Program-made: the position numbers and the translations under genes
Notes under the pieces: model-generated
Told to the model about the DNA's origin: nothing
Seen by the model: only the letters and a program-made list of their open reading frames with translations
Databases searched by the model: none
DNA from: a virus
Taxonomy: Duplodnaviria; Caudoviricetes
Virus record (IMG/VR): IMGVR_UViG_3300037483_000324
Span: 1 to 43,109 of that record
DNA: 43,109 nucleotides
Reading direction: 5' to 3' (one strand)
Shown: in pieces, positions 1 to 43,109 of the stretch
How positions within the stretch are numbered: the first letter of the stretch is position 1
Layout: the number at the start of each line of letters is the position of its first letter

Positions 1-698
1 TGGATGCCTGGATTCAGAAAGCAGCCCAGATCGGGGCGGAAACCTACATTCTTAACCTGCTTGAGTTTAACGGTGAACTCTATGGCGGTACCGCGCCTAA
101 TGGTCTGCTTGTAAAATGGAACGGCGTTGAAAAGCGATACATCGAGTTGTTGATGGATCGGATTGCCGATGAAACAACACACGATTATTTTTTCGTCGAT
201 TGCGGTTTGACTTATAGTGGGCCTGCAGCGACTATCATTTCCGGGCTTGATCACCTTGAATATAAAGAAGTGGCGGTCTTGGCCAACGGTTCGGTATTAC
301 CGCGTAAGACAGTGGTCGGTGGCCAGATCACATTAGATAGCCCTGCTACGCTAGTTCACGTTGGATTGTCTTACGTGTCAGACTTGAAAACGCTGGGTGT
401 CGAGTTTGTAGATGAAAAAGGGACCGCTCAAAGCCGTTTAAAACTAATACCAAGAGTCGTTGTAAAATTACGCGATTCAAGAAACGCTTGGATTGGCCCG
501 GACGAAAACAGACTTATCGAGCTACGGATGCGTGATCAACTTATGGGCGAAGAACCGATTCCGCTTTTCACTGGTGATAAGGTTCAGTCGTTCAATGCTG
601 GTTATGATCGCTCTGGTGAGATTCTGATACGGAACGTTGATCCGGTACCGCTAACCGTGTTGTCGATTATACCGGAAGTGGAGCTTAGCGATGAGTAG
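1..698 (+). CDS. C-terminal part of tail nozzle / tail tubular protein B (continues from 40259..43109)
   Basis: Frame is open from position 3 (DAWIQKAAQ...NGVEKRYIELLMD...) and in frame with the tracked 147..698 ORF. KRYIE, FFVDCGLTY, ISGLDHLE..EVAVLANG, VHVGLSY and PLTVLSI are typical of BPP-1/epsilon15-type nozzle C-termini. Confidence 0.88.
   Translation, partial: DAWIQKAAQIGAETYILNLLEFNGELYGGTAPNGLLVKWNGVEKRYIELLMDRIADETTHDYFFVDCGLTYSGPAATIISGLDHLEYKEVAVLANGSVLPRKTVVGGQITLDSPATLVHVGLSYVSDLKTLGVEFVDEKGTAQSRLKLIPRVVVKLRDSRNAWIGPDENRLIELRMRDQLMGEEPIPLFTGDKVQSFNAGYDRSGEILIRNVDPVPLTVLSIIPEVELSDE
9..128 (+). repeat. Last 126-bp unit of second nozzle repeat array
   Basis: Identical to unit 7 of the first array (41561..) through ...AACGGCGT. 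Confidence 0.95.
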
Positions 699-9500: not shown

Positions 9501-11260
9501 GGTTTTCCGGAAGCGATCTTGAAGGACTATTTCACAAGCGGGTATTCACAGATGGCATGCCGCTTTCCATGACGAAAAATCAAGTTTTATCGGTTGCGCT
9601 GAATGTCGGTACCATTGACAATAAAGCGAAGCTGCTTGACGGTTATGGCTGGACAGAAGGTCAACTGAACAACATTTTAGACAATTTAACCGAACAGGAT
9701 TGGCAATTCGCGCAAAATGTTTGGGACTATGTGGGTAGTTTCAAGACAGAATCGTTTGCTGTAGCCAAAGAAATGACCGGGAAACGTCCGGAAGAGGTCA
9801 AGGCAGAACCGGTGCAAACGAAGTTCGGGGAAATCCCTGGCGGCTACTATCCGTTAGTTTATGATTCAAGATTGTCTTTTACTTCGTTCATGCACCAACA
9901 GGCTAACGATTTGAAAGGACTGTTCCGTAAAGTACACGCCACAGCCAACACTAAGCCTGGATCTCATTTTGAACGGTTAGCATCAGCGGGTGGCCAAAAA
10001 GTAAAACTTGACCTTTCGGTTGTCTCGGATCACCTATTCGAAGTCGTACACGATATCACCCATCGTAAAGCCGTTATCAATGTCAGCAAATTGATTAGAG
10101 ATAAAAGGTTGCAAAAATCCCTGACGTCAACGATCGGGATCGATATGCAATCTCAATTGAGAGATTGGCTACAAGATGTCGCGCAAGAAAAATCTAATCC
10201 AAGCGATTCTTTTCATCGGCTATTACGTTGGGCCAGGGTGGGAACCACGGTGATGAACCTGGGATTGAAAGCAACAACCACAGTAACCCAGTTTGTCGGA
10301 TACACTCAAACAATTAATGCATTGGGGATTAAACAGGCCGCTAAAGGTTTAAACATGTTTTATGGTTACGGATCAGATTATACGGGCATCGGAACCAGAA
10401 TCGATTTTGTTTTGGAAAAATCCGGTTTTTTGCGTAATCGGTTGATGAGTCACGACCGGGACATTCGCGATGCCATAAAAAACCTATCTCCCGGTAAAAA
10501 GCTAAACGCAAACGTTAGGCGCTTTGCATTCCTTAGCATCGGATTAGCTCAGATGGGCGTTGACCTTCCGACATGGTACGCGGCCTACGATAAAGCGATT
10601 AATGATAGTATCGATTTAGATCCGATTGAAGCCGACAGGAAAGCTATTGATTACGCTGATTCCATCGTAAGACAAACTCAAGGAGCCGGGGGAACGAAAG
10701 ATTTAGCCAAGATTCAGCGCGGTGATGAAGCAATGCGAGTATTTACGATGTTCTATGGTTTTTTTAATACGCTTTACAATCTTGCCAGCGTAAGAATTTC
10801 CGCAGCTAAAAAAATAAGCGACATTCCGGCACTGGCAGCATCGGCACTATGGCTTTGGTTCGTACCGGCGTTATTGGCTGAAATGGTAGCAGGTAGAGGT
10901 CCAGAAGATGACGATGAATGGGGAGAATGGGCACTACCTTTGTTGGCCATGTACCCCTTTCAAACCGTCGTCGGTGTCCGGGATTTTTCCAACTATGCTT
11001 TCGGTAAGTACGGTTATCAGGCGACACCGGCTCAAGCGGCACCGAAAGAAATTGCCGATTTTTTTGGTCAAATCGATAAAGCGATTGAAGAAAAAGACGC
11101 AGAAAAAGCTCTTAAGCAAACCGCTGAAACGGTAGGATACATCATGAAATGGCCCATGAAACAGGTAATCATCACTGTTGGTAATGTCTATGACTATGTA
11201 ACCGGGGAAGATCCGGAATTCGAGATAAGAGACTTGTTTTTCACTAAGCAAAAAAAATAG
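3488..11260 (+). CDS. Giant (2590 aa) polyvalent internal virion/ejection protein: LPD22-like N-terminus, ART-PolyVal-like domain, EEIQSDW domain, HExxH zincin-like motif
   Basis: FKNWFGESKVV..GKPVVVYRG..GFYF..YLSLKNP..GYDGVI..EYIVFKPTQIKS (ART-like), LFIEEIQSDWHQ and LSTLIHETGH; gp16 position before the tail fibre. Confidence 0.8.
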   Translation: MEGLVEVGTLSDLGATDDQGLIEIKDPDFLKNLTPNRAYQNLEAVRDMDPDAEARRLNLSKTSGLSWSTVRAKEQAVQQQVYFPDMHTMQWLAPGTVRYFTDLANAAVSKDDAENLAKVESTWSKVKKSWQVGTQNVEGGKLYTEKLVHALAGTDNPELDKKIAAYEASRIKPPEDDNFIETGLTAAAEMLPILKETVLSGQAEGLAYATAFGVGALALGQMGPQVALPEEVITVPGAVATGYFAGVKVGSAKSIFQIEAGLAYQEMGEIKDETGQPIDSRIAAVASIGIGGVNAGLEFTGLKAISKLIPGGQYLVGRFIAEPVKKALQNPSVRDALLGVAIKYAGAVGTETWTEMAQEVVTILGTEVAKTVTEETKGAEFGESETNNLSRILEAGKQAFAATVTLGIPGVTVSSAHRINQIQKTQQFQDRFTKLAEAVEVTKTKQRDPERLETFINSIGASEPAYLSAEGIQTLFQSDPENAQTLLNQIAENPELAQKAAIDGQDVKVDTAKIMAFMTPEQQESIKIDLKPAPSALSPREIQDIDFNEELKNVEDYYKEIVEAESTFRDEMNQLRKQVTDTGYSPEYADNYLQIVERFVDRMSLEGLNKQEFVKKISVQYQGEVIDPNGIQYNQEGSILTESEAFKNWFGESKVVNEIGKPVVVYRGDTEPVETYKESKLEQGTQLLGGGFYFVDNRIDALEYGVKNPIKGFSGSNTNAFYLSLKNPYVIDVEGRNIRAVQPETSDYARDNGYDGVILKNVIDGRGFVVSGTNKPKTEYIVFKPTQIKSVFNQGTFNPKDPNILKQTKEPFKVRQLFQNVMEKLGFYSDVLRSVEAMDFKQIPGKELVARLKKLPRVKKEELDHLGIIEWLDGIEGKVSKEDVIHFIEQGGVQLEEIVKGESGLTKVFSVDSPEDQDFYSVYDVQNNELFTGTEREADVFISEWEVDTGKYKNYTLPGGKNYREVLLTLPETKSDFSEIKRRYDELDSAYHSRTLSVSEENERTRLYNKLAMGERPDSYKSSHWDESNVLAHFRLDDRIDSEGRKTLFIEEIQSDWHQEGRRKGYIDLLKAKKIEQEFSQYSKKLAEKYNLNPAQNLTMYARLVNMTSAEVIEYERLQQAWVSTKKSTPDAPFKSSWPLLAFKRILRMAAEESYDSVAWTPGNIQADRYDLSEQVEAIGYEKRGSLYNISVWDKKEKRVYSNQSVTIQDVENVLGKEIADKIQKGEGELDGTLTYLTGLDLKVGGEGMKAFYDKMLPSIVQGYIKKLDKNAKVETSKIDTGKGDLPDLGLPSEREYLASRLNESESVVAYVKRKETETRKKTVWYLHLTDQLKEKVLAGQALFQPATDQPRGGVNITDEKHLVNIFRNKDLSTLIHETGHIFLKEMRQLYRVKDVSDQFKQDYELLLKWLDLKAIDYDRYVEMAGIGLLNLTESQQAEWRVLDKDVRAKLEKFAKGFEVYLMEGKAPTADLIPVFQRFKNWLFSVYKSALGLDVELNDEVRSVFDHMFTIRQEVFNAAQVNDITLPTKSELDALGVVADDRAYMQRLYKKAIADAEEALHRERNANRRGSIKTWRTMAEKQYDEDPTNRFIKFLSEGVGLSKADLLETFGEDAVDLITKKRVPPVVTEKGMGLLEASVIGGYQNSNEMVKALINVQKKEDFVKAWMAEEDKRHDSLYKAEDFIAGTEAFSDFLEIKNKYLKRSQGVPTEATPWRAFQAYAKQRFGSMKVKDAIAHHTYLAAYAKHSKLEKSKIGQGKFGEAAKANETTRLNYEMAKQAIANRKAVEKTEKAVKRLLKSKAVTADTRYQLFDLAARFGLVTRQTSEDLNAALARVREAVPKEDRALLIDWIDAKAEQGYEIQLPRFILDATKVQNYKDLPFSEFEKLAESFDVLRTIDREERFYTALGKAIELEKVVDGLETQLFSAVEVKALKRLDESALKLFFSGMNAVHTKMEFLLRKLDGGKVNGIWWNYFFKPIADAESNRDDRLKVIRKKLKSKDLFGRFSGSDLEGLFHKRVFTDGMPLSMTKNQVLSVALNVGTIDNKAKLLDGYGWTEGQLNNILDNLTEQDWQFAQNVWDYVGSFKTESFAVAKEMTGKRPEEVKAEPVQTKFGEIPGGYYPLVYDSRLSFTSFMHQQANDLKGLFRKVHATANTKPGSHFERLASAGGQKVKLDLSVVSDHLFEVVHDITHRKAVINVSKLIRDKRLQKSLTSTIGIDMQSQLRDWLQDVAQEKSNPSDSFHRLLRWARVGTTVMNLGLKATTTVTQFVGYTQTINALGIKQAAKGLNMFYGYGSDYTGIGTRIDFVLEKSGFLRNRLMSHDRDIRDAIKNLSPGKKLNANVRRFAFLSIGLAQMGVDLPTWYAAYDKAINDSIDLDPIEADRKAIDYADSIVRQTQGAGGTKDLAKIQRGDEAMRVFTMFYGFFNTLYNLASVRISAAKKISDIPALAASALWLWFVPALLAEMVAGRGPEDDDEWGEWALPLLAMYPFQTVVGVRDFSNYAFGKYGYQATPAQAAPKEIADFFGQIDKAIEEKDAEKALKQTAETVGYIMKWPMKQVIITVGNVYDYVTGEDPEFEIRDLFFTKQKK

Positions 11261-11271
11261 GAGATAAACCA

Positions 11272-12825
11272 ATGACAATAGCTTCCAGTGTGTCTGTTTC
11301 CCCGCTTTATGTCGGGACCGGAAGCGTAAACACCTACGCTTACAACTTTTTAATTTATAGCGATGCCGATTTAATCGTCGTCATGCGAAATCTTGAAGAC
11401 ACCGAAACTAAATTGGTTTTAAATACCGATTACACTGTAACCGGTGTAGTAAACTCAAACGGCGGTAACATAGTCTTATCGGCAAATTTGACCTCAGGTT
11501 ACAAACTGAGAGCGTATCGCAAGACAGCCAGGACGCAAGAAATCGATCTAACTAATCAGCAAAGCTATTTCTTAGAAGGGCTGGAACGGGGTCTTGATAT
11601 GGCTACTATGCAGATTCAAGAGCTTCAGGCCGATAGCGACCGGAGCTTGAAAACAAGTGTTACTTCAGCCGCACCTACTTTTAATAATGTCGATACCGTA
11701 GTTACAGAAATAAACACTATTAAAGAAGCAGCAGAATTGGCTGAAACAAACGCAAAATTGGCTGAAACAAACGCAGAAACAGCTCAAGTGGCAGCAGAAT
11801 TGGCTGAAACAAACGCAGAAACAGCTCAAGTGGCAGCAGAATTGGCTGAAACAAACGCAGAAACAGCTCAAGTGGCAGCAGAATTGGCTGAAACAAACGC
11901 AGAAACAGCTCAAGTGGCAGCAGCAGCGGCGCTAAGTGACGTTGAAGTGGCAGCAGCAGCGGCGCTAAGTGACGTTGAAGTGGCAGCAGCAGCGGCGCTA
12001 AGTGACGTTGAAGTGGTACAAGCTGACATATATGCGTTTGTCCTTACTATACACAAAACAGGGTATGTTTTAAATGTAGCTAGGCATCTAAGAACGTTAA
12101 GTAATTCAGAATTTCCGTTCGGAATTACTTTTAGCGCTGACGGAACGAAAATGTATTTAACCGGTAACGTTCGAACTTATATCATGCAATACGCACTGTC
12201 AACAGCGTGGGACGTGAGTACCGCTACTATAGAAAAAACATTTAGCGTTGCGTCTCAAGGAACCCACCCATACGGCGTTAATTTTAGCATAGACGGATTA
12301 ACTCTTTTTGTTACTGATGGCGTAACTAAAGACATTAATCGTTATACCCTATCGACAGCTTGGGATATTGCCACGGCGACATACGCCAACGCTCTTAACA
12401 CAACGGCGTATGACACGCCACAGCTTATAGCTTTTAGCGTGGACGGGACGAAACTGTTTGTTATGGGCGTCGTCAACAAAAACGTGTATCAGTTCGCTTT
12501 ATCGACTGCTTGGAATGTCGGTACGGCTACGTATGTTCAATCGTTTGGCGTCTCAGCGGCGGGTACCCCGCGAGGCATTTCTTTTAGTGCCAACGGGATG
12601 AGCATGTTTATAGCTAGCTTTGATGCCAATGCTTACGTATACGAGTACTTACTATCGACAGCCTGGAATGTTGCAACCGCCGTATACCTCCAATCCTTTA
12701 ACGCCCTACCAGGCCAATATATTTATGGAATTGCTTGGAGTATTGACGGAACACGACTTTACGTGACAAGTAATACAGAATATATTCTTGAATTTTTAAC
12801 CGGATTCTACGAGCTAAACGATTAG
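11272..12825 (+). CDS. Tail fibre / receptor-binding protein: T7 gp17-like anchor, repeat coiled-coil stalk, C-terminal beta-propeller
   Basis: N-terminal YVGTGSVNTYAYNFLIY..DYTVTG..GGNIVL..YRKT..LERGLDMATMQIQEL; heptad/hendecad repeats; five ~50-aa G.xFS.DG.K.Y...Y.LSTAW repeats. Confidence 0.85.
   Translation: MTIASSVSVSPLYVGTGSVNTYAYNFLIYSDADLIVVMRNLEDTETKLVLNTDYTVTGVVNSNGGNIVLSANLTSGYKLRAYRKTARTQEIDLTNQQSYFLEGLERGLDMATMQIQELQADSDRSLKTSVTSAAPTFNNVDTVVTEINTIKEAAELAETNAKLAETNAETAQVAAELAETNAETAQVAAELAETNAETAQVAAELAETNAETAQVAAAAALSDVEVAAAAALSDVEVAAAAALSDVEVVQADIYAFVLTIHKTGYVLNVARHLRTLSNSEFPFGITFSADGTKMYLTGNVRTYIMQYALSTAWDVSTATIEKTFSVASQGTHPYGVNFSIDGLTLFVTDGVTKDINRYTLSTAWDIATATYANALNTTAYDTPQLIAFSVDGTKLFVMGVVNKNVYQFALSTAWNVGTATYVQSFGVSAAGTPRGISFSANGMSMFIASFDANAYVYEYLLSTAWNVATAVYLQSFNALPGQYIYGIAWSIDGTRLYVTSNTEYILEFLTGFYELND
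11758..11922 (+). repeat. Tandem 42-bp repeat x~4 (LAETNAETAQVAAE)
   Basis: Units start at 11758, 11800, 11842, 11884; partial copy upstream from 11728. Confidence 0.95.
11914..12015 (+). repeat. Tandem 33-bp repeat x3 (VAAAAALSDVE)
   Basis: Exact units start at 11914, 11947, 11980. Confidence 0.95.
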
Positions 12826-16281: not shown

Positions 16282-18420
16282 CTAACCTTTCTTATATCGT
16301 TTTCCTACAAATCCTTCGACTCCAACAGGGCATCCTATTGCCCAGTCCGGAACTCGGGCCATGATCTTTAAAAAGTCTTCCAGGTTAAAATTTTTAAAGC
16401 CTTCAGGTACCTCAACAACGTCTTCGTCGTGCACGTGAAAGATAACCGGATATCCGGCTTTTTCATGGTTGGTAATAGCGAACCGCAAAAAATCGTTTGC
16501 GACTGCTTGCGTTACATTTTCAGCTAATTTACCGCCATAGGTGTGGATTCTAGTAAACTGTTTCGTTATAGAATCTACTCCCATGTAGGTAACTTGCTTT
16601 TTTTTCCTTCGTTTACAAACCTCAACGGTCTTTCCGTCGATAACGGTTTCTTCGATAACAACATCATCAACATTAGCAATCCGAGGATCGTAGTAGTTTA
16701 GTGTTCTTCCGGAAGGTAGCCTAATGTGCATAAAACGATGGCCTTTAAACTCCCTTACTCCGAACCTTAAGTAACCAACCGTGATCGTTTTACCGGGCTT
16801 TCGGATACATTCAAATGCTGCATTCTGCAGATCCGCCCAAAACTGTATTGTTTTTGGCCGATTATCCCGCCAAGCCATAATGAATGGGGAAGACCATTTC
16901 TTAAACATGGCTTCCCGTATCGTAAGCCGTCGACCGTTAAAATCTTTCATGTCTTTCTTTTCAAGTGTGATCCCTGCCGGTGGTTCAACTTCGTAGATTT
17001 TCGCCATGGACATGAATGCCGACCAATGGCCCTGAAAACCACACGCCAATTCGATTACCTTGCCAATTTGTCGAAGCCCCTTATCAATTTGATCGTATGG
17101 TTTGCCAAAAGCCCCGGAAGCGGCAATCTTGTACAGATCCTTACCGCTCCGGTATGCCTCAAGAATAAATTCTTCGCCAGCCAACCAGGCTAGAATTCGT
17201 CCCTCGATCGCCTTATAGTCACCGGCCATTAAAACGTAACCGGGTGAGGCTGTAATTATGGAGCGTATCAGTTTAGAAGCCGTGACAATCAAATTATCAT
17301 AGAGCGCCGCTACCAACTCGTAGTCTCCGGATCTGATTGTTGCCAGACAGGCTTCAACGTCTTCGTAGAATGCCCGGATAATGTTTTGGAATTGAACTCG
17401 TTGTCCTGACCATCTCCCGGTACCGGCACCGTTAAACATATGACAGCCTCTTGCTCTTGAGTCTTGACTAATACTGTTAAGCATGGCGTTATATTTTTTA
17501 ACGCTACTCATACCGGCCTGTTGCCTAATTTCAAGCACCCGTTTTACTTGTTCCGGAAGGTGCTCCAATTTTAAAAGGTGAGAAACCGTGTCCTTCGTCA
17601 AATCTACCACCGTGACGCCTTGTGATTCAATCCATTTTCGTAGCTCTTCAACTTGAGTCGGGTTGACTCCCGTAAGTGCTCGACACTCTTCTGCCAATTG
17701 GGCTTGACTGGATTCAAACATGGTTATGATTTTATGCACCGATTCGGTATCGATAAGCACGCCACGAGCGTTAATCTTCTGATCCAGGAACCACATCTCT
17801 TGTTCTTGATCGCTTAAATCCCGTAGGTTTTCTGACACCTCGTATTCTGTTTCTACATCCTGTTCGCAGTAGTGAAACAGCTTTATCAGCTTTTCCGGGT
17901 CTTCATCCCAGGTACCCGGATCTGATTTAGATGGCTTTTTTGGTTTGGAAAGCCGAAGCATGATCTGGTGGCCTTTCTTGTCTTTTCGGTTTTTAAGATT
18001 CAAGGCTTCCGCTACTCCATCCAGTGGCCTCGGCAGTTGGTGGATAGCTGCTTTAGCAGCAGAACACCGCCATTGTCGTAGCGGTATTTCCGGCCAACCA
18101 TATTTTTTTGTCATGACGTGACGGAAGATGGCTCGTTCGAACCCGGCGTTATGTGCTTCGAAAATAGCCCCCTTCGCGATCATAACTTTTAAAAGCAGTT
18201 TTGGATCTAAAGGAAGGATATTAAACTCATCGGTAACGCCTTTTAAATATTCATAAACGATCACTTGAAAGTGGGGATTAATCCAGATACCAACCGGTTC
18301 GCTGTCTACCTTAAAAGCCCAGCAGAACACGTCTGTACTTTCATGTTCTGCGTAGGCCCAAGCGCCACAAACCTTAATGTCTTTTTCCGATCGTGTTTCA
18401 AAATCGTTTGTGATTTTCAC
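16282..18420 (-). CDS. Family A DNA polymerase with 3'-5' exonuclease (APSE/BPP-1-like)
   Basis: Exo motifs DFET, AHNAGFE, YCEQD; TGRWSG; motif A DYKAIEGR; motif B RQIGKVIELACGF; motif C HVHDE; YGGKLAENVTQA. Confidence 0.95.
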   Translation of the reverse strand: MKITNDFETRSEKDIKVCGAWAYAEHESTDVFCWAFKVDSEPVGIWINPHFQVIVYEYLKGVTDEFNILPLDPKLLLKVMIAKGAIFEAHNAGFERAIFRHVMTKKYGWPEIPLRQWRCSAAKAAIHQLPRPLDGVAEALNLKNRKDKKGHQIMLRLSKPKKPSKSDPGTWDEDPEKLIKLFHYCEQDVETEYEVSENLRDLSDQEQEMWFLDQKINARGVLIDTESVHKIITMFESSQAQLAEECRALTGVNPTQVEELRKWIESQGVTVVDLTKDTVSHLLKLEHLPEQVKRVLEIRQQAGMSSVKKYNAMLNSISQDSRARGCHMFNGAGTGRWSGQRVQFQNIIRAFYEDVEACLATIRSGDYELVAALYDNLIVTASKLIRSIITASPGYVLMAGDYKAIEGRILAWLAGEEFILEAYRSGKDLYKIAASGAFGKPYDQIDKGLRQIGKVIELACGFQGHWSAFMSMAKIYEVEPPAGITLEKKDMKDFNGRRLTIREAMFKKWSSPFIMAWRDNRPKTIQFWADLQNAAFECIRKPGKTITVGYLRFGVREFKGHRFMHIRLPSGRTLNYYDPRIANVDDVVIEETVIDGKTVEVCKRRKKKQVTYMGVDSITKQFTRIHTYGGKLAENVTQAVANDFLRFAITNHEKAGYPVIFHVHDEDVVEVPEGFKNFNLEDFLKIMARVPDWAIGCPVGVEGFVGKRYKKG

Positions 18421-19022
18421 GGTTTGAGCCTAGACAATTCACGTCGATAGCTAACGGCAAAATTCGAACAAACCTCTTTACCCTTTAATTCTGCTACCAG
18501 TTTTTTACGGTCGTCTGATAGGCGCGAATGATCACCGGACAAAAGGTGATACATCAATTGATCGAATATTCGTTCTCCCCAAATTACTTTTAAGCTGTCA
18601 CAGCGAAGCGGCCACGCCGAAAAATCAAAAATAGCGCCTGACAGATCCGCGCCTGACAGCTTCGCGCGTGACAGATCCGCGCCTGACAGATCCGCGCCTG
18701 ACAGATCCGCGCCTAACAGATCCGCGCCTGACAGCTTCGCGCCTGACAGATCCGCGCCTGACAGCTTCGCGCGTGACAGATCCGCGCCTGACAGATCCGC
18801 GCCTGACAGATCCGCGCCTAACAGATCCGCGCCTGACAGATCCGCGCCTGACAGCTTCGCGCGTGACAGATCCGCGCCTGACAGATCCGCGCCTGACAGA
18901 TCCGCGCCTGACAGATCCGCGCGGTAAAAACTCATTGCTTTGTCGTTTTCTAGGCATTCTTTTAGAGTGCCCGGAAATTCACATATAACACTTTTAGTGT
19001 CCCACCTTTTTATCGTCATCAA
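18417..19022 (-). CDS. Pentapeptide-repeat protein
   Basis: 19 A(D/K)L(S/L)(G/R) units flanked by short unique domains. Confidence 0.9.
   Translation of the reverse strand: MMTIKRWDTKSVICEFPGTLKECLENDKAMSFYRADLSGADLSGADLSGADLSRAKLSGADLSGADLLGADLSGADLSGADLSRAKLSGADLSGAKLSGADLLGADLSGADLSGADLSRAKLSGADLSGAIFDFSAWPLRCDSLKVIWGERIFDQLMYHLLSGDHSRLSDDRKKLVAELKGKEVCSNFAVSYRRELSRLKP
18636..18920 (-). repeat. Tandem 15-bp repeat x19
   Basis: Consensus GCGGATCTGTCAGGC on the minus strand with a few recurrent variants. Confidence 0.95.
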
Positions 19023-19048: not shown

Positions 19049-19633
19049 TTAACCAAACAGATCGTCATCGATAGTGGCGTATTCAACTTGATCAGACCCA
19101 GGAGAAGCGACCGGTTCGAAATCGTCTTCCGGATTACCCATCGCGTTACCCAGTGGCTCGCCATCACGTAGTTTTTGAACATTTCCTAGGAAAAAACTCA
19201 CTCCCGTGTTGCCGGTATTGTCGTAAATGAATGGCGTGATCATCGCCCTGGCGTAGCAACCTGAGTAAAAATCACTCGCAGAAACGAGTATCGTGTGTGC
19301 ATTAGCGGCCACAATTCCTGGTCGTTGTTTCGACCAAGCCCGAATCACCCAGTGTCCAGGATACCCATCATAGATATTTCCTTTGCTGTTTGGAACATCA
19401 CCGTCCTTTATCGGATTTTTTAACAAAGGCCGTTTTGCTTTATCCGGAAAGACAGATTCGACACATTTTCTCACGACATTTCTGATATTCGTAATGTCGA
19501 TCGTTTTTGGAATCAGCAGGGTTATTTCATATATGAGCTTACCCTGCTGGTTTTCAACGGGTTCAAAAGCATGAGCTAAAGAAACCCGGCCTTCAGGCGT
19601 TCGGATCTTTTCGCCAACTGTGTTCTTCTTCAT
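19049..19633 (-). CDS. ssDNA-binding protein (DUF2815 / T7 gp2.5-like)
   Basis: RVSLAHAFEP, PIKDGD, FYSGCYARA, GVSFFLGNVQKLRDGEPLG, acidic/aromatic C-tail DDDLFG. Confidence 0.9.
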   Translation of the reverse strand: MKKNTVGEKIRTPEGRVSLAHAFEPVENQQGKLIYEITLLIPKTIDITNIRNVVRKCVESVFPDKAKRPLLKNPIKDGDVPNSKGNIYDGYPGHWVIRAWSKQRPGIVAANAHTILVSASDFYSGCYARAMITPFIYDNTGNTGVSFFLGNVQKLRDGEPLGNAMGNPEDDFEPVASPGSDQVEYATIDDDLFG

Positions 19634-19644
19634 TTTTTTTATCC

Positions 19645-20871
19645 TTAAAACAAATCGTTTAAATCATCATTAACTGAATCAAAATCGTCCGAGATGGACG
19701 GAATAAGCGCTGGTTTTGAACTATGTTCCGGCGCTATCGAAACACTGGGCGGGTTTCTGATTATTAAATGATCGTACAAAACTTGCGGGTTGCGCTCTAC
19801 ACCACGCGTCTTATCGATCGCTTTGACTGTTTTATCCATCTGCGCCGGAGATAAAAGCGTTTGCGGAACGTAGATTTTATCTCCATAACCAACCAGTAGA
19901 TTGGCAACCAGCTTCTCATCTAACCACTTACGATTACCGGCTCTACCTTGTACTAATTTCCAGCCTGGAACAACAACGCCACGCTCCATTTCTGCTTTTG
20001 CGAAATCGGCCACTTTCGTAAAAAACGGGGCAATAACACTATTCGTAAATTCCCGTATTTTTAGCGTTTCAGCGATTTGTTCAATCGACATCTTTTCCGG
20101 AGCTTCAAGCACGGCGAAATCTCGCTGTGCCAACTCTTTCGCAGCGTCAAACAATGCCGGACAGGAAGCCTGCGCAGGGCAAAAATAGTCATTGCACCAA
20201 TAACCTGGCTTCAACCCGGCATCCGGTTTAATCGATTCCAGCGCTGCTGGCAATAGAGTGTTGTATGCCCAAGCCAATAACTCTTCCGGCGTTAATTGCC
20301 AGCGTCTAATCGGACCACCAGCATGGCTACAACGCGGCTGAACAACTACCAACTCGACTAAATCGTTGTCATCCTTTAAAGACAGATACGCCCCTAACGC
20401 ATAAAACATGAGCTGGTAGTTCCGTTCGACGCTAACGGGAACGCCCTGACCGTGCTTATAATCAAACACGGTCAATTTTCCTAAAACCTCACTGACACAG
20501 GCGTCATTAGTCCCAAACATTTCCAGACCTTTAAATTTAGGATCCAGTTTGGCGAGATCGAATTTTTGCTCAACGTACAGTTCACAGCCGGCCTTTTTCT
20601 CAAGTCGTACAGCGGTTACATAGTGCTGCACGGCTTCAATCATCTCATCCGTTACCTTCCAAGCCTTGCCATTCATTTCGTATTTTTGGCCAAGGTAGCT
20701 GGAAACGGCTTTCCACTCTTTAAGTGCCGTTGATCCCAGCAAATGAGCCGCCGTACCCTCATCCGCATAGTCACTCGTCGTTGGCGGGATGTCCTGACAC
20801 AGCCTAACGCTTCCAGGACAATTAACCCAGCGCGGACAACTGGATCCGCCAAGTTTAGCGTGTTCAGCCAT
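19645..20871 (-). CDS. DUF2800 PD-(D/E)XK (Cas4-like) exonuclease
   Basis: HAKLGGS..RWVNCPGS, EGTAAH, FGTND, DYKHGQG, QLMFYALGA, WC..FCPA...C, PGWKLVQGR. Confidence 0.9.
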   Translation of the reverse strand: MAEHAKLGGSSCPRWVNCPGSVRLCQDIPPTTSDYADEGTAAHLLGSTALKEWKAVSSYLGQKYEMNGKAWKVTDEMIEAVQHYVTAVRLEKKAGCELYVEQKFDLAKLDPKFKGLEMFGTNDACVSEVLGKLTVFDYKHGQGVPVSVERNYQLMFYALGAYLSLKDDNDLVELVVVQPRCSHAGGPIRRWQLTPEELLAWAYNTLLPAALESIKPDAGLKPGYWCNDYFCPAQASCPALFDAAKELAQRDFAVLEAPEKMSIEQIAETLKIREFTNSVIAPFFTKVADFAKAEMERGVVVPGWKLVQGRAGNRKWLDEKLVANLLVGYGDKIYVPQTLLSPAQMDKTVKAIDKTRGVERNPQVLYDHLIIRNPPSVSIAPEHSSKPALIPSISDDFDSVNDDLNDLF

Positions 20872-26976: not shown

Positions 26977-27546
26977 TTATCGTTTTTTATTCTTACCGGC
27001 TTTGAGGTAGTAATCTAACAAAGACTTAAAGACATCAGTAAGAATCGCGTAGTATTCCGCGTCACTTATTTTACCAGCTTCATAATGTTCTAACGAGGTG
27101 TCGAAGATAACTCCGTGGCAAAACAGCTTTAGTTTTTTAACGTCAAGGCGATATTCTTTGGCCATAAGCATGGTTAAAGTTTCCGCTCGGGCATGGTTTT
27201 CGGCGGAAATACTTGGCGCGTTTTGCATCTCTTCGCTGTACGGGAAATAGCATCCTGTTTTAAGGATATTATTTCCCATCAATATAAGGTCGTACACGCT
27301 TGTGTTTAGCGCCGTTGCTATTCTATCTTTTATGGCGTCAGGAATTTTTTTATCCTCTTGGTTTATTATCCCGTTTAGATATTGTTTAGATATTCCTATG
27401 CCTTCCGCCAATCTTGCTTTAGCGCCTCTAGGGCTTGTTATTTCTTTTAATGCAGTGGCAAAACACTGTGCCACTGGATAGTATCCGACAGCCTTCCATC
27501 TACCCTTTTCCAAATCATCTTCAAACGATTTTTTCTTTTTGGTCAT
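26977..27546 (-). CDS. XRE-family HTH repressor (CI-like), no S24 peptidase motif recognised
   Basis: KARLAEGIGISKQYLNGII...IATALNTSVYDLI; divergent from the cro-like gene. Confidence 0.75.
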   Translation of the reverse strand: MTKKKKSFEDDLEKGRWKAVGYYPVAQCFATALKEITSPRGAKARLAEGIGISKQYLNGIINQEDKKIPDAIKDRIATALNTSVYDLILMGNNILKTGCYFPYSEEMQNAPSISAENHARAETLTMLMAKEYRLDVKKLKLFCHGVIFDTSLEHYEAGKISDAEYYAILTDVFKSLLDYYLKAGKNKKR

Positions 27547-27628
27547 TGTTTATCCTTTTAAGTTTAATAAAATCAGCTTTTAAACAACAATAATACCCTA
27601 ATAGGTTGACAAATTGCAAGCATGTTCC

Positions 27629-27657
27629 TTGACATGTTATGTGTCAGTTTGTATTAT
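27629..27657 (+). promoter_or_regulatory. Rightward promoter (PR-like) with overlapping TGACA-N7-TGTCA candidate operator
   Basis: TTGACA 27629-34, 17 bp spacer, TATTAT 27652-57; inverted repeat 27630-27646. Confidence 0.75.
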
Positions 27658-27703
27658 CATCAGGGTACGAAACACGCAAAGTAAAACGATAATAGGATAA
27701 AAT

Positions 27704-27910
27704 ATGGAATGGAAACGAGGCGATAAATCAAAATTAGCAACACTCGCAGGCATATCTAAGCAATATCTAAACGCAATTTTAAAAAGGAAAAAGCGATGTA
27801 ATCCAAGCACCGCTTTAAAGCTCGAAAAAGCGGCAAAAGAGATGGATTTGGCCATAAGTGCAAACGATTTGGTGTTTAATAAGGAAACCAATAACTCACT
27901 ATTCGGCTAA
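27704..27910 (+). CDS. Cro-like HTH protein
   Basis: KSKLATLAGISKQYLNAILKRKKRCNPSTALKLEKA; first gene after the PR-like promoter. Confidence 0.8.
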   Translation: MEWKRGDKSKLATLAGISKQYLNAILKRKKRCNPSTALKLEKAAKEMDLAISANDLVFNKETNNSLFG

Positions 27911-30250: not shown

Positions 30251-30492
30251 GTAAACGACATGTAAATGACAACCGCGCAAATGCTACTATATTGTTTACG
30301 CGGATACGTGTCATTTACATGTCATTTACAAAAAATTAGGCCTTGTCATTTAGCTGTCATTTAGTCATTTAGATTTTTAAATTGTTGTTATTAAAAGATA
30401 AAAACATGCTATTTATACTCGTCAGTCAGTTCGAGACAGGAACGGGGGTATATACACCCCCTTAAGGGGTGCATATACCCCCTGTGTCGAAC
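30251..30492. other. Putative replication origin: iterons, AT-rich tract, long palindrome
   Basis: (T)GTCATTTA at 30309, 30320, 30344, 30355, 30364 and inverted copies at 30252, 30263; AT-rich 30372-30416; palindrome 30429-30492; lies just downstream of the primase-helicase. Confidence 0.65.
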
Positions 30493-30547: not shown

Positions 30548-30994
30548 ATGGTTGCAAGTTATTTAGGCATAGATCCTGGTAAGAGCGGGGCCGTAGCGCT
30601 GTTACATTCAGATGGCGTTGAGATTCAAGATTGGGTGGATGGCCCGACAATGGACGGTGTGTTAAAAAATTGGCAGATGTTGTTTGGTATCACGATGGCG
30701 GCACTTGAACATGTAAGTGCTATGCCAAAACAGGGGGTAACAAGTATGTTTAGTTTTGGTACCAATTTCGGTTGGTGGCAGGGTTGGCTAGAGTGTGCTG
30801 GTATCTCTTACGTGTTGGTCAGGCCGCAAAATTGGCAAAAAGGAATGGTGCCTAAAAAAATGTCAAACACGGATAAACCAAGCTTGACGGTTGTTAGGCG
30901 TCTATTCCCCGACGTTGAGTTGCATTTGCAAAAGCATCATGGTCGGGCGGATGCTTTGCTGATTGCGGATTGGTTGAGAAGAGCGAGAAAATGA
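30548..30994 (+). CDS. RuvC-like Holliday junction resolvase
   Basis: GIDPGKSGAVA, ALEHV..MPKQGVTSMFSFG, HGRADALLIA; GGAGG SD. Confidence 0.88.
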   Translation: MVASYLGIDPGKSGAVALLHSDGVEIQDWVDGPTMDGVLKNWQMLFGITMAALEHVSAMPKQGVTSMFSFGTNFGWWQGWLECAGISYVLVRPQNWQKGMVPKKMSNTDKPSLTVVRRLFPDVELHLQKHHGRADALLIADWLRRARK

Positions 30995-31363: not shown

Positions 31364-32245
31364 ATGAAACGGTTTTTATCGAAAGAAAAGAGTTTGCTGT
31401 TGGCGGCGGTAATGGCGATAGCCGTTATTGTTTTATTGCGATCGATCGGGTTTGGCACTTTAGCGACCACGTGGGCGCTAGAATTCTTTACACCACCTTG
31501 GGTGAAAGTTCTAGCCGGGAATTTGCTGTATGCCGTGTTCAACCTGGTAATGGCAGTGGTGACGTATCGGGTATTGGACCGGGTGTTGCTCGGGAAGTTA
31601 AGACTCGCAGACGAAATCAAAAAAGGCAACTGGACGGTAACGGTTTTTGTCACCGTGGTGATGGCTGCGGTTATCCTTTCAGGAAGGACGGCAATTGGAG
31701 TCGAGCAATCGCCTCTGATAGCTGCCAAACCCTATTTAACTACGATCGAAACAGCACATAACCGGTATTTTGGGAGGGGCTCTGAAGTACCCTATCGGTT
31801 GATTGTCTCTCAGTTCTATCAGGAAAGCAGGTTTGATGCTAACGCCGAATCTCCTGTTGGGGCAATAGGGATTGCTCAGATCATGCCAGGCACTAGATAC
31901 GATATTGAGCGGCAGATCGGGCCGTTTAATCCCTGGAATGCCAGGGATTCTATTTTTTCCGGAACTTACTACGTTGCTGATCGTTGGTTTGTATTCAAAT
32001 ACGGAAATAAGACAACGGCCAATAGGATGGCACTAGCTTTAGCTGCTTATAATAGCGGGTTGGGGTATGTGCTACAAGCACAAGCTTTGGCAACAGATTC
32101 CCAACACTGGTTGCCAGTGGCGGAAGCACTCTATAAAGTTCCGCGAGTGATAGCAGAGGAGCCGGTGACGTATGTGCGGTTAATATTCGAGCGGTATAAT
32201 AAGGTGTTCAGGCTTAGGAGTGATTTTAGGTTGGACGTAAGTTAG
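31364..32245 (+). CDS. Endolysin: SLT lytic transglycosylase fused to N-terminal 3-TM (DUF350-like) domain
   Basis: QESRF...SPVGAIGIAQIMPGT, ALAAYNSGLG, EPVTYV; three hydrophobic segments with LADEIKKGN. Confidence 0.85.
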   Translation: MKRFLSKEKSLLLAAVMAIAVIVLLRSIGFGTLATTWALEFFTPPWVKVLAGNLLYAVFNLVMAVVTYRVLDRVLLGKLRLADEIKKGNWTVTVFVTVVMAAVILSGRTAIGVEQSPLIAAKPYLTTIETAHNRYFGRGSEVPYRLIVSQFYQESRFDANAESPVGAIGIAQIMPGTRYDIERQIGPFNPWNARDSIFSGTYYVADRWFVFKYGNKTTANRMALALAAYNSGLGYVLQAQALATDSQHWLPVAEALYKVPRVIAEEPVTYVRLIFERYNKVFRLRSDFRLDVS

Positions 32246-39659: not shown

Positions 39660-39671
39660 TTGGTTAAAGAA

Positions 39672-40262
39672 ATGGGTGTTTCAGTAGTTGGTATCTGTAA
39701 TCTAGCGTTGTCGCACCTTAGTGCAGATTTAATTAATTCGCTATCGGACGCAACGAAAGAAGCAAGACAGTGTAATTTACTTTACGAATCTGCTAGAGAT
39801 TTTGTTTTGCAAGACCATCCTTGGGGATTTTCAGAGCGACGAGTAGAACTATCGTTATTAAGTGAACAGCCGATTGGGTATTCCTATGCGTATCAGTACC
39901 CGACCGAGTGTTTACTTGCACGAAAGATTTATCAAGAAATCAAAACCGCAAAACCTATTAACTTTGAAGAGCAAATACAGGAAAACCTGACTAGCCGCAT
40001 GATTGTAACCGATCAAGCTGACGCGGTCTTGGTTTACACGGCTAAAATAACGGATACGAACGTTTTTTCCCCGGTATTTACGACAACGCTGTCCTGGAAA
40101 TTAGCCTCCGATTTGGCTAAACCGATAACAGGTAAGGCCAGTGTTAGCCTTGCCATGCTTCAAATCTACAACGCGTATCGAAACCGCGCTGTTATTGCCG
40201 ACGCTACCGAAAGCCGTAGTAGCGTTGAAACGGAAAACGATTTTATTAAGGCCCGATCATGA
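39672..40262 (+). CDS. Tail adaptor / tail tubular protein A
   Basis: SVVGICNLALSHL, YESARD..L..HPWGF, YAYQYPTECL, LASDLA.PITG. Confidence 0.88.
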   Translation: MGVSVVGICNLALSHLSADLINSLSDATKEARQCNLLYESARDFVLQDHPWGFSERRVELSLLSEQPIGYSYAYQYPTECLLARKIYQEIKTAKPINFEEQIQENLTSRMIVTDQADAVLVYTAKITDTNVFSPVFTTTLSWKLASDLAKPITGKASVSLAMLQIYNAYRNRAVIADATESRSSVETENDFIKARS

Positions 40263-43109
40263 CTTTTGTTAATCAAGCTGCTTTTACGAGCGGAGAATTA
40301 ACGCCGTCGTTACATGCGCGGGTTGATTTAGAAGGATATCATAGCGGCGCAAAACTGTTGAAAAACTTTATTGTTCATGCGCATGGAGGGGCTAGTAATC
40401 GGGCCGGAACTTATTTTGTCGGTGAAGTGTTCGATTCGACCCGTAGGTCATTGCTCGTACCGTTTCAGTTTTCTGTGATTCAGGCGTATGTACTGGAATT
40501 TAGTCACTACAAAATGCGTATTTTGAAAGACGGCGGTATTGTCGTAAACGCCGGTGTTCCGGTCGAGGTTATAACTCCTTGGGCTGAATCCGATTTAGAC
40601 GATTTGTATTTCGCGCAAAGTGCAGACGTCTTGTACGTTGTGCATCCTAATTTTCCAATCAGGAAAATATCTCGTACTTCTCACATTGATTGGAGTATCA
40701 GCGTTATTAATTTTGTAGACGGTCCCTACGCTTCCGTCAGCGCGTTTGTTTGGGACACTCAGGATGTCGTGTTTTCTCCGGATAGTTGTTACTCCGATGT
40801 TAATTGGATTCAGAAAGCAGCCCAGATCGGGGCGGAAACCGACATTCGTAGCCTGCTTGAGTTTAACGGTGAACTCTATGGCGGTATCGCGCCTAATGGT
40901 CTGCTTGTAAAATGGAACGGCGTGGATGCCTGGATTCAGAAAGCAGCCCAGATCGGGGCGGAAACCTACATTTTTAACCTGCTTGAATATAACGGTGAAC
41001 TCTATGGCGGTACCTATCCCAATGGTCTGCTTGTAAAATGGAACGGCGTGGATGCCTGGATTCAGAAAGCAGCTCAGATCGGGGCGGAAACCCACATTCT
41101 TAGCTTGCTTGAGTTTAACGGTGAACTCTATGGCGGTACCGCGCCTAATGGTCTGCTTGTAAAATGGAACGGCGTGGATGCCTGGATTCAGAAAGCAGCC
41201 CAGATCGGGGCGGAAACCGACATTCGTAGCCTGCTTGAGTTTAACGGTGAACTCTATGGCGGTACCGCGCCTAATGGTCTGCTTGTAAAATGGAACGGCG
41301 TGGATGCCTGGATTCAGAAAGCAGCCCAGATCGGGGCGGAAACCCACATTCTTAACCTGCTTGAATATAACGGTGAACTCTATGGCGGTACCTATCCCAA
41401 TGGTCTGCTTGTAAAATGGAACGGCGTGGATGCCTGGATTCAGAAAGCAGCCCAGATCGGGGCGGAAACCGACATTCGTAACCTGCTTGAATATAACGGT
41501 GAACTCTATGGCGGTACCGCGCCTAATGGTCTGCTTGTAAAATGGAACGGCGTGGATGCCTGGATTCAGAAAGCAGCCCAGATCGGGGCGGAAACCTACA
41601 TTCTTAACCTGCTTGAGTTTAACGGTGAACTCTATGGCGGTACCGCGCCTAATGGTCTGCTTGTAAAATGGAACGGCGTCTTGTTAAGTTCTCCAAATGA
41701 TGTTTTTAACGCTTCAATGGCCGGTCAAAGAGTCCGTCTAGGCTATTTCGATCCTGAAGACAGCGCCAACATGTCTTGGCGAATTGGTGAAATAGTCGCA
41801 TATAAAGACGCTAAGAACGTTCGCGTTGATTTTCAATCTTATCGGGAAGTGCTTGGACATTGTTTCGTTAAAAACCATCGGTTTTACGAAGGCTTGGCGG
41901 AATGGCAGGACTATTCAGCGGGGGGAACTGTTAAGTTTCAAACAGGCCTGTTCGTTAGGCTAACGCATGGTACTGGAAAAGCAGACATGCGACAGGAAGT
42001 GGCAGTCATGAAAAATAGTAGCGTGAGTCTGGTTTTCCATGTCGCTAACATTCCTGCTCCCGCAACGGTTAGGGTTCTTGTTGGTATAACAAGCGGTGGT
42101 GCTGAGTTAGTAACGGCCATAACGCGTACTACAGTTGGCGCTTCTATTGCGAGTTTCAATACCGGTGCCAACAATATGATTTACGTTACGGTCGACACAA
42201 CCGGGTCTGCTTCCGGAAACACAGCGGATATCGCAATGGTGGCGATTGTGTTGAATCAGAAGGAAACCAATCAATGGCGTGTTCCGGCTTGGACGAACGC
42301 AACCGGATACCCGCGCGTAGTTACGTTTTTCGAACAACGGTTGGTGTTTGGATCTTCGGTTGAAGAGCCGCAAACGTTTTGGCTTTCAAGAACGGGAGAT
42401 TACGAAAATTTTGGGTTTAATTCTCCGATACAAGATGACGATTCATTTCAGTTTGTTTTGGCGTCGCGGCAACTAAATGATATTAGATGGCTCGTTGCCT
42501 TTTCTGAGTTGGTAGCCGGTACTTCTGGTGCCGAATGGGCAATTTCAAGAAGTAAAGATGCGATAGCGCTGACGCCTACTTCAATTTACGCGAGATCACA
42601 GTCGTATCTAGGTTCTGCTGATTTAGCGCCTATCATCATAAACAGTTCGATCGTGTTTGTTCAGCGCGGCAGTAACGTCGTTCAGGATTTAACTTATTCG
42701 CTGGAAAAAGACGGCTACATTTCACAGAATCTTTCTATTACGTCCGAACACCTTTTTAAAGGTAAACAAATAGTTAGCTGGGACTATGCGCGTAATCCCG
42801 ATTCTATTGTATGGTGTGTATTAAACGATGGAACACTGGTCGGTATGACTTACGTTAAAGAGCAAAAGATTTGGGCTTGGCACCACCATGAGACGGACGG
42901 TCAGTTTGAAAGGGTGTGCGTTGTACCTGGCGAAGGGGCTTCAGACGACGTCTATTTCGTCGTAAAACGAATAGTTGGCGGCGTTGGTTCATGGATTCAG
43001 AAAGCAGCCCAGATCGGGGCGGAAACCGACATTCGTAGCCTGCTTGAGTTTAACGGTGAACTCTATGGCGGTATCGCGCCTAATGGTCTGCTTGTAAAAT
43101 GGAACGGCG
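40259..43109 (+). CDS. Tail nozzle / tail tubular protein B, N-terminal part (not in ORF track; continues into 1..698, 1182 aa as assembled)
   Basis: ATGA overlap with adaptor stop. MTFVNQAAFTSGELTPSLHARVDL..NFIVHAHGGASNRAGT, AQSADVLYVVHP, GYPRVVTFFEQRLVF, WLSRTGDYENF, AWHHHETDG; no stop found by manual translation. Confidence 0.92.
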   Translation, partial: MTFVNQAAFTSGELTPSLHARVDLEGYHSGAKLLKNFIVHAHGGASNRAGTYFVGEVFDSTRRSLLVPFQFSVIQAYVLEFSHYKMRILKDGGIVVNAGVPVEVITPWAESDLDDLYFAQSADVLYVVHPNFPIRKISRTSHIDWSISVINFVDGPYASVSAFVWDTQDVVFSPDSCYSDVNWIQKAAQIGAETDIRSLLEFNGELYGGIAPNGLLVKWNGVDAWIQKAAQIGAETYIFNLLEYNGELYGGTYPNGLLVKWNGVDAWIQKAAQIGAETHILSLLEFNGELYGGTAPNGLLVKWNGVDAWIQKAAQIGAETDIRSLLEFNGELYGGTAPNGLLVKWNGVDAWIQKAAQIGAETHILNLLEYNGELYGGTYPNGLLVKWNGVDAWIQKAAQIGAETDIRNLLEYNGELYGGTAPNGLLVKWNGVDAWIQKAAQIGAETYILNLLEFNGELYGGTAPNGLLVKWNGVLLSSPNDVFNASMAGQRVRLGYFDPEDSANMSWRIGEIVAYKDAKNVRVDFQSYREVLGHCFVKNHRFYEGLAEWQDYSAGGTVKFQTGLFVRLTHGTGKADMRQEVAVMKNSSVSLVFHVANIPAPATVRVLVGITSGGAELVTAITRTTVGASIASFNTGANNMIYVTVDTTGSASGNTADIAMVAIVLNQKETNQWRVPAWTNATGYPRVVTFFEQRLVFGSSVEEPQTFWLSRTGDYENFGFNSPIQDDDSFQFVLASRQLNDIRWLVAFSELVAGTSGAEWAISRSKDAIALTPTSIYARSQSYLGSADLAPIIINSSIVFVQRGSNVVQDLTYSLEKDGYISQNLSITSEHLFKGKQIVSWDYARNPDSIVWCVLNDGTLVGMTYVKEQKIWAWHHHETDGQFERVCVVPGEGASDDVYFVVKRIVGGVGSWIQKAAQIGAETDIRSLLEFNGELYGGIAPNGLLVKWNG
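40805..41680 (+). repeat. Tandem 126-bp (42-aa) repeat x7, predicted 7-bladed beta-propeller insert
   Basis: Units start 40805, 40931, 41057, 41183, 41309, 41435, 41561; consensus WIQKAAQIGAETxIxxLLExNGELYGGxxPNGLLVKWNGVDA. Confidence 0.95.
42992..43109 (+). repeat. First 126-bp unit of second nozzle repeat array (runs off the window end)
   Basis: Identical to unit 1 of the first array, including the ATC-GCG variant otherwise unique to it. Confidence 0.95.

Follow-up and report, generated by a model that had tools for sequence, protein, structure and literature searches.

The window analysed here is the whole 43,109-nt virus record IMGVR_UViG_3300037483_000324 (Duplodnaviria; Caudoviricetes), which is 96% complete and present in two sediment metagenome runs (X1 and X2). 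Pfam and PHROG profiles identify a portal, capsid, adaptor, nozzle, internal virion proteins, a tail fibre, an integrase and a PolA replication module, and the virus is likely a temperate podophage. The last gene is the tail nozzle, a 950-codon reading frame still open at the contig end, and an array of near-identical 126-bp units (array 1, 40805–41679) lies in frame within it. The gene order fits a podophage nozzle, with the phrog_394 adaptor on the 5′ side and internal virion proteins (phrog_308 and phrog_418) on the 3′ side across the contig break. The array is real and larger than first reported, and there is good support for reading it as the face of a virion-protein propeller that recombines and is under selection.

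Tandem Repeats Finder (TRF) gives array 1 a period of 126 nt, 6.9 copies, 93% matches and a score of 1554. Its units start at 40805, 40931, 41057, 41183, 41309, 41435 and 41561, the seventh ending after codon 39–40, and share a mean nucleotide identity of 94.5%. An earlier description made from the letters alone (the sequence-only reading) had listed seven 126-bp units, about 13 variable nucleotide positions and six residue haplotypes; we recover the units and haplotypes as listed and count exactly 13 variable positions. Nine of the variable bases are non-synonymous and four synonymous (codons 6, 17, 19 and 30). The accompanying statement that synonymous sites are almost invariant therefore fails as a count but holds per site, where the synonymous proportion (pS) is 0.077 and the non-synonymous proportion (pN) at codons 13, 15 and 29 is 0.39. 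Whole codons are swapped between identical flanks at these three hot codons. Of the six residues said to vary, 13, 15 and 29 prove hypervariable across the blade family, but 16, 20 and 28 do not (within-propeller variability 0.26, 0.14 and 0.07), and the variant at 28 is a singleton (Ile28, private to the unit 1 type). Pfam and PHROG matches on the arrays (DHDPS, LPD13, DUF1138 and excisionase) were rejected as summed weak repeat matches with no passing stretch.

The array is predicted from 73 aligned sequences to form 28 strands (predicted local distance difference test (pLDDT) 97.6, predicted template modelling score (pTM) 0.94), which fall in each unit at residues 1–5 (d), 13–20 (a), 23–29 (b) and 34–37 (c). 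The best structural match of the predicted model is 2z2n, a seven-bladed propeller (Z 32.5, root-mean-square deviation 2.5, 287 aligned), and many WD40 structures follow at Z 26–29. Model and matches thus agree on the single seven-bladed propeller proposed for the 7 × 42 residues; a single-sequence fold (pLDDT 43, helical) was discarded for the alignment-based model. A WD40 identity of the blades finds no support in the sequence. The nearest profiles are Kelch types (E 9e-15 to 3e-5; the alignment profile matches SAKe6 and KLHL20), while the blade belongs to no Pfam family, the array has no Pfam Kelch match, and neither Pfam nor PDB profile searches return WD40. The modelled chain opens with strand d and has c as its last strand; both of its ends therefore meet at one c–d turn, making the domain a ready loop insert. 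In a propeller the face bearing the c–d turns lies opposite that bearing the d–a and b–c loops. The variable residues had been placed at the start of strand a and in the b–c turn, which is right for 13, 15 and 29 but not for 20, at the far end of strand a. Positions 14–17 fit the bulky-R1-R2-bulky pattern of WD40 proteins as set out in the available part of PMC3419727, and by the same rule 13, 15 and 29 would be the counterparts of R1-2, R1 and D-1.

Selection was assessed by allele counts in related arrays. A degenerate DNA pattern, which prescribed the motif surrounding codon 29 for one unit or more, returned 18 viral and 8 genome stretches. From these we compared the window and 13 further arrays over the ungapped units (codons 1–37), counting each change once per array; data were pooled for contig ends L080/L092, for L082/L085 and for the two arrays of L086, and L001 (2 units), L091 (nearly the same as L078), L084, L093 and L096 (diverged or gapped), and L094 and L097–L100 (no array) were left out. 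The hot codons of the window hold 6 amino-acid changes in 7.0 sites, compared with 3 in 78.5 sites elsewhere and 4 silent changes in 23.5 sites, a ratio of 5.1 at hot codons vs 0.22 elsewhere (p = 0.012). The 11 arrays that were not used for defining the hot sites, pooled, give 2.07 vs 0.33 (p = 1e-8). By this heuristic count, selection likely favours change at three residues of what would be the top face.

The same positions stand out across the wider blade family. Nozzle and array searches gave many seven-unit relatives, with 248 representatives (50% identity clusters) at E values up to 1e-30, and 50 of 83 proteins have exactly seven blades. Among the 26 of 70 propellers with blade identity above 60%, variability peaks at 13, 15 and 29 (0.85, 0.81 and 0.84), the next position being 30 (0.59), and ten further propellers agree (0.80, 0.81 and 0.77). 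The hot sites take 14–18 residue types, with Tyr at 25–35%. In a survey of 32 blade-bearing proteins against Pfam and 30 against PHROGs, several join it to baseplate DUF2612, Dit, P2 gpI-type, Mu gp48, YqbQ, P22 gp10-type and gene transfer agent (GTA)-type tail domains; other carriers have LamG or type IX secretion system (T9SS) domains, and many have no further match. The blade found no match in 50,697 GenBank phage records, an 18-nt metagenome scan gave 75 loci of which none encodes the unit (chance matches), and Atlas matches all scored below 0.9.

Several relatives have unusual arrangements. Two related phages carry a stand-alone, permuted propeller that starts at strand b and ends after strand a (L078 142–1179 and L090 4913–5881), with blades that differ chiefly at 13, 15 and 29; L090 also has several long imperfect repeats in a gene-poor stretch (1547–2950). 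Two to five propellers of this blade occur in P0003, P0318 and other representatives, and the two of P0003 share near-identical blades. L093, L095 and L096 place the blade in large archaeal proteins (Bathyarchaeia, ANME-2 and Thermoplasmatota records). Many viral contigs terminate inside arrays (L078–L082, L085, L086, L088, L091 and L092), so the family probably fragments assemblies often.

The window itself is such a case, and the sequence-only reading overlooked a second insertion at its ends. The final 118 nt match unit 1 and the first 127 nt match the closing part of array 1 (unit 7), each with 0 mismatches, and the phrog_376 nozzle profile runs on across the break, reaching position 523 of 712 at the contig end and resuming from 519 at the start. 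The genome is therefore likely circular, the contig having broken inside a second array 1.3 kb 3′ of array 1 in the same nozzle gene. In run X1, a 1,372-nt Logan contig spans from the end of array 1 into the first unit of array 2, and a loose end connects the terminal part of a blade with the nozzle sequence downstream; no joint skipping an array occurs in the X1 contigs examined. Two virus types with one insertion each were ruled out by the contig bridging both arrays and the lack of such a joint. Both runs were read as contigs, and these statements apply to array parts with contig cover. If there are two like arrays, depth per k-mer copy is 15.9–17.8 in five and 24.2 in one of six array contigs listed of 14, whereas one array would put the same six at 32–48, with flanks at 20–23; depth is not copy number, and this fit counts as support, not proof. 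We infer two like arrays per nozzle gene, and by arithmetic the nozzle would total ~1,392 residues if array 2 equals array 1. Array 2 is flanked by a 7-nt direct repeat (GGCGTTG) similar to the blade linker, a resemblance that suggests microhomology-mediated insertion.

The nozzle is distant from cultured phages, with best matches only 37–47% identical, and a peptide-pattern search of viral contigs returned no close nozzle relative. The closest nozzle (P0001), which matches the solved nozzle 8ck1_A (E 2e-139), is 68% identical before array 1 and 72% after it, with nothing between. Neither insert is present in P0001 or four further close nozzles, which points to recent insertion. By homology to 8ck1 and the domain order given in the available descriptions of SU10 and A1002, site 1 would fall within the tip domains that interrupt the nozzle core, and site 2 within a hairpin close to the core end. 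At least 60 extra residues occur near site 1 in 12 of 162 other nozzles; only one of the 162 has this blade, there degenerate and C-terminal. Among 16 chosen proteins the extra modules are LamG, F5/8-C or CBM5/12, and this nozzle family thus appears often to display binding modules.

Alleles are reassorted between the units, as had been proposed. The four-gamete test fails in 3 of 28 informative window pairs (nt 44 × 47, 44 × 57 and 44 × 59). Nor is the array invariant across related genomes: strain L001, 98% identical overall, carries other first and second blades (8 nt differ in unit 1 and 4 nt in unit 2), and with it added a 2-nt allele (codons 19–20) and a 4-nt allele (codons 29–30) occur in all four combinations. 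With multi-base alleles, recurrent mutation is hardly the cause. Across 11 arrays, incompatibility is higher for distant than for near codons (0.53 vs 0.39, p = 0.023, one site per codon), a comparison that replaces a first distance test (p < 0.001) which had counted sites within one codon. Breakpoints inside single blades point to conversion tracts of tens of bases, and the identical end units of the two arrays fit exchange between units. Since arrays differ between strains and units within a strain stay alike, the array appears to undergo concerted evolution. In run X2 a minor variant shares L001 bases at 16/16 and 6/6 checked positions. The nozzle N-terminus differs from L001 (3192–3737) at 44 of 546 nt, 39 of them synonymous, compared with 8 of 2,991 nt upstream; at ~8% divergence between strains otherwise 99.7% alike, it marks a recombination block.

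The sequence-only reading had cast the array as a candidate diversification system. No enzyme, template or recombination site dedicated to such a system was found, and we prefer passive repeat recombination under selection. The window holds no separate template repeat and the changes are not adenine-only; the array has no inverted repeat of at least 20 nt; and the integrase is the sole site-specific recombinase among 27 scanned open reading frames (no invertase). Judged from their profiles, the phage annealing protein, exonuclease and resolvase could carry out repeat recombination (Table 1).

Table 1 Features of the nozzle locus and of putative recombination functions in the window.
Feature	Position	Strand	Profile match or remark
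Array 2, last unit, identical to unit 7; middle of array 2 absent from the contig	1..127	+	
Nozzle gene, 3′ part across the break	1..698	+	phrog_376 positions 519–711
gp2.5-like ssDNA-binding/annealing protein and exonuclease	19049..20871	-	phrog_112, phrog_69
Holliday junction resolvase (general recombination function)	30548..30994	+	phrog_1770
Tail adaptor gene, 5′ of the nozzle	39660..40262	+	phrog_394, E 6e-55
5′ part of the tail nozzle gene (950 codons, running off the contig end)	40259..43109	+	phrog_376 tail protein, E 7e-154
Nozzle N-terminal block	40259..40804	+	divergent from strain L001
Array 1, seven 42-codon blades, predicted seven-bladed propeller with 1+3 closure, inside the first nozzle-tip domain	40805..41679	+	
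Hot codons of unit 1: 13 (40841–40843), 15 (40847–40849), 29 (40889–40891); equal offsets in all units	40841..40891	+	
Nozzle tip and core between the arrays	41680..42991	+	
Array 2, first unit, same sequence as unit 1 (private Ile28 codon included), within a hairpin loop close to the nozzle-core end	42992..43109	+	

Elsewhere in the window, the tail-fibre gene (11272–12825) contains fresh coiled-coil repeats of 42 nt (99%) and 33 nt (100%) at 11731–12016 and, toward its C terminus, diverged propeller-like repeats with a weak SGL match. A pentapeptide-like repeat protein (18417–19022) contains a 15-nt unit repeated 19 times (90% identity). The polyvalent internal virion protein (3488–11260, 2,590 aa) carries LPD22 and ART-PolyVal (ADP-ribosyltransferase) domains. 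The primase gene is flanked by intergenic inverted repeats at 27362–27783 (67 nt, 75%) and 30251–30329 (21 nt, 95%). An SLT transglycosylase fused to a membrane DUF350-like segment (31364–32245) is a possible lysis gene, which points to a bacterial host.

We consider it reasonably probable that these findings describe an in-frame double insert whose predicted propeller face points outward and likely binds the host surface, shaped by likely ordinary recombination and selection at three residues. In such a scheme the repeat domain, inserted in the podophage nozzle gene at two places, would fold as a seven-bladed propeller with its variable face away from the tail, where it would contact the host. 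General recombination through short conversion tracts would keep the blades alike while reshuffling their alleles, and selection would favour change at codons 13, 15 and 29. Two like propellers per subunit would amount to 12 per virion if the nozzle is hexameric.

Several observations weigh against this account. The X1 contigs listed contain no allele beyond those of the window, so any shuffling within one population is conjectural. One depth of six is an outlier (24.2), and the per-copy depth (~17) falls below the flanks (20–23). Blade order is unique only for k-mers of at least 119, with 4 orders at k = 99 and 48 at k = 77. Exposure of 13, 15 and 29 on the top face is read from the strand pattern and the WD40 rule, and adhesion is a putative, if likely, function of the propeller. 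Taken singly, only 8 of 14 arrays reach p < 0.05, and the three most diverged (oldest) give ratios of 0.7–1.4. The allele count is a heuristic that ignores recombination, though the repeats recombine. Finally, bacterial T9SS and archaeal proteins carry the blade too, which is therefore not phage-specific.

A bolder version, which we find doubtful, would make the insert a mobile propeller cassette and an enzyme-free counterpart of diversity-generating retroelements (DGRs), plugged into virion proteins, its three binding codons reshuffled among 14 blades in two synchronised copies through very short conversion tracts and at a pace that would shift host range in living populations. It is unlikely that the pattern instead reflects a single blade amplified in recent times, in which three tolerant surface positions are under relaxed constraint and the mosaic, a by-product of unstable repeats, plays no part in specificity. 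Young propellers arise continually, often with more non-synonymous than synonymous changes, as the available text of PMC9218822 describes, this genome holds other fresh repeats, and the low ratios of the oldest arrays are in keeping with that view. Relaxation, however, predicts a ratio near 1, whereas the window gives 5.1 and the pooled arrays 2.1, and whole codons are exchanged between flanks that are identical; positions 40 and 41, exposed as well, vary less than 13, 15 and 29, and frame and seven-blade count are kept (50/83 proteins).

To an equal degree we doubt that the propeller targets something other than the entry receptor, such as biofilm matrix, sediment particles or a loose first attachment site, which would then drive the selection. 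The separate tail-fibre gene, the close nozzles that dispense with the domain and the LamG and T9SS neighbours in cellular proteins speak for such a target, but diversifying selection fits a changing biological one and site 1 lies, by homology, in the nozzle-tip insertion region. It is very improbable that assembly produced the mosaic or the double insertion from a shorter or reordered array, even though short-read assembly of 126-bp repeat arrays is unreliable (PMC12222747, in the sections available), the contig breaks in an array, the order is ambiguous at k ≤ 99 and run X1 may be the source sample of the record. Within-unit haplotypes span less than 60 nt and recur unchanged in contigs assembled separately, each of the two insertion junctions is bridged with no array-skipping joint, five of six depths fit two like arrays, and L001 carries the same site-1 insertion; for blade order this explanation can still hold. 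Least credible is a DGR or other trans-acting targeted mutator rewriting the three codons. In its favour, variation is tightly focused and C or T is the last base of 84% of hot codons (196/234), the outcome expected if adenines of AAY codons were specifically mutated. Against it, Tyr, His, Phe and Asn suffice to explain that bias, 32 of 42 hot codon columns are variable at the third base, the residues include Glu, Gln, Met and Trp, and, in addition to the lack of a template repeat, reverse transcriptase (RVT_1) is found in none of 11 array-bearing records (this one 96% complete, most of the other 10 incomplete).

The nozzles of Carin1 (gp44, 8ck1), SU10 and A1002 provide the homologous scaffold of platform, core propeller and tip domains between core blades, and their descriptions, in the parts available, mention no inserted repeat propeller of the kind found here. 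Carbohydrate-binding modules of phage structural proteins (evolved Dit; PMC6669499 and PMC7533335, in the text available) are likewise grafted into conserved virion proteins; they are single non-repetitive domains without internal shuffling, unlike the array. Kelch repeats and the designed SAKe6 share a similar W..VAP start and a GG in strand b, but the blade here is shorter (42 residues) and seven blades are present, in line with seven-bladed structural neighbours. DGRs likewise confine variation to a few residues of a tail protein whose scaffold is stable. They differ from the array, where no reverse transcriptase or template repeat was found, change is not adenine-limited and diversity comes from reassorted existing alleles. 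Searches of the open-access literature, supplements aside, turned up no account of such arrays in a phage nozzle or of codon-level selection in virion propellers.

Closer parallels lie among highly repetitive beta-propellers (WRAP and HR-WD40). As described in the available portions of PMC9218822 and PMC5587647, these have 7 or 14 blades, recent amplification of one blade, blade identity above 60% and diversity at predicted hot-spot sites, with members reported in viruses; variable hot spots are noted in repetitive prokaryotic WD40s (PMC5587647). The array shares the recent amplification, and its 94.5% unit identity exceeds the 60% mark; on the fold model, a predicted four-stranded closed toroid, we assign it to the propellers of PMC9218822. 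Neither virion display nor selection at the codon level in phages is covered in those portions, and the supplementary lists may hold members. The blade family is large (248 clusters) and unannotated, sits on many tail parts and breaks assemblies routinely, so it is likely under-counted. Its scaffold is nearly symmetric, has three variable residues in each blade and tolerates loop insertion, which makes it a natural start for binder work.

The HET-D/HET-E parallel drawn in the sequence-only reading, repeat homogenisation with diversifying selection on a propeller face, agrees with PMC1805685 in its available text. The HNWD arrays of Podospora anserina consist of 126-bp units under concerted evolution within and between arrays; their selected codons lie on the top face, in the d–a loop and b–c turn, rearrangements create new units, and assembly is difficult (PMC1805685, PMC2873952 and PMC12222747, each as far as available). 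Unit length, concerted evolution, selected d–a and b–c codons on a top face (here by inference), new units arising through rearrangement and assembly difficulty are common to both. The differences are that this is a virion protein and not a cytoplasmic NOD-like receptor (NLR), with no NACHT or HET Pfam match and no WD40 signature, and that it has three hot codons (13, 15 and 29) where the available HNWD accounts give two pairs. Rearrangement that changes recognition specificity is a feature of HNWD, and in the nozzle it is a candidate by analogy. The array works like the HNWD arrays without being a member, and it extends the HET-D/E mode of receptor evolution to a phage virion, with codon-level support from 14 arrays.

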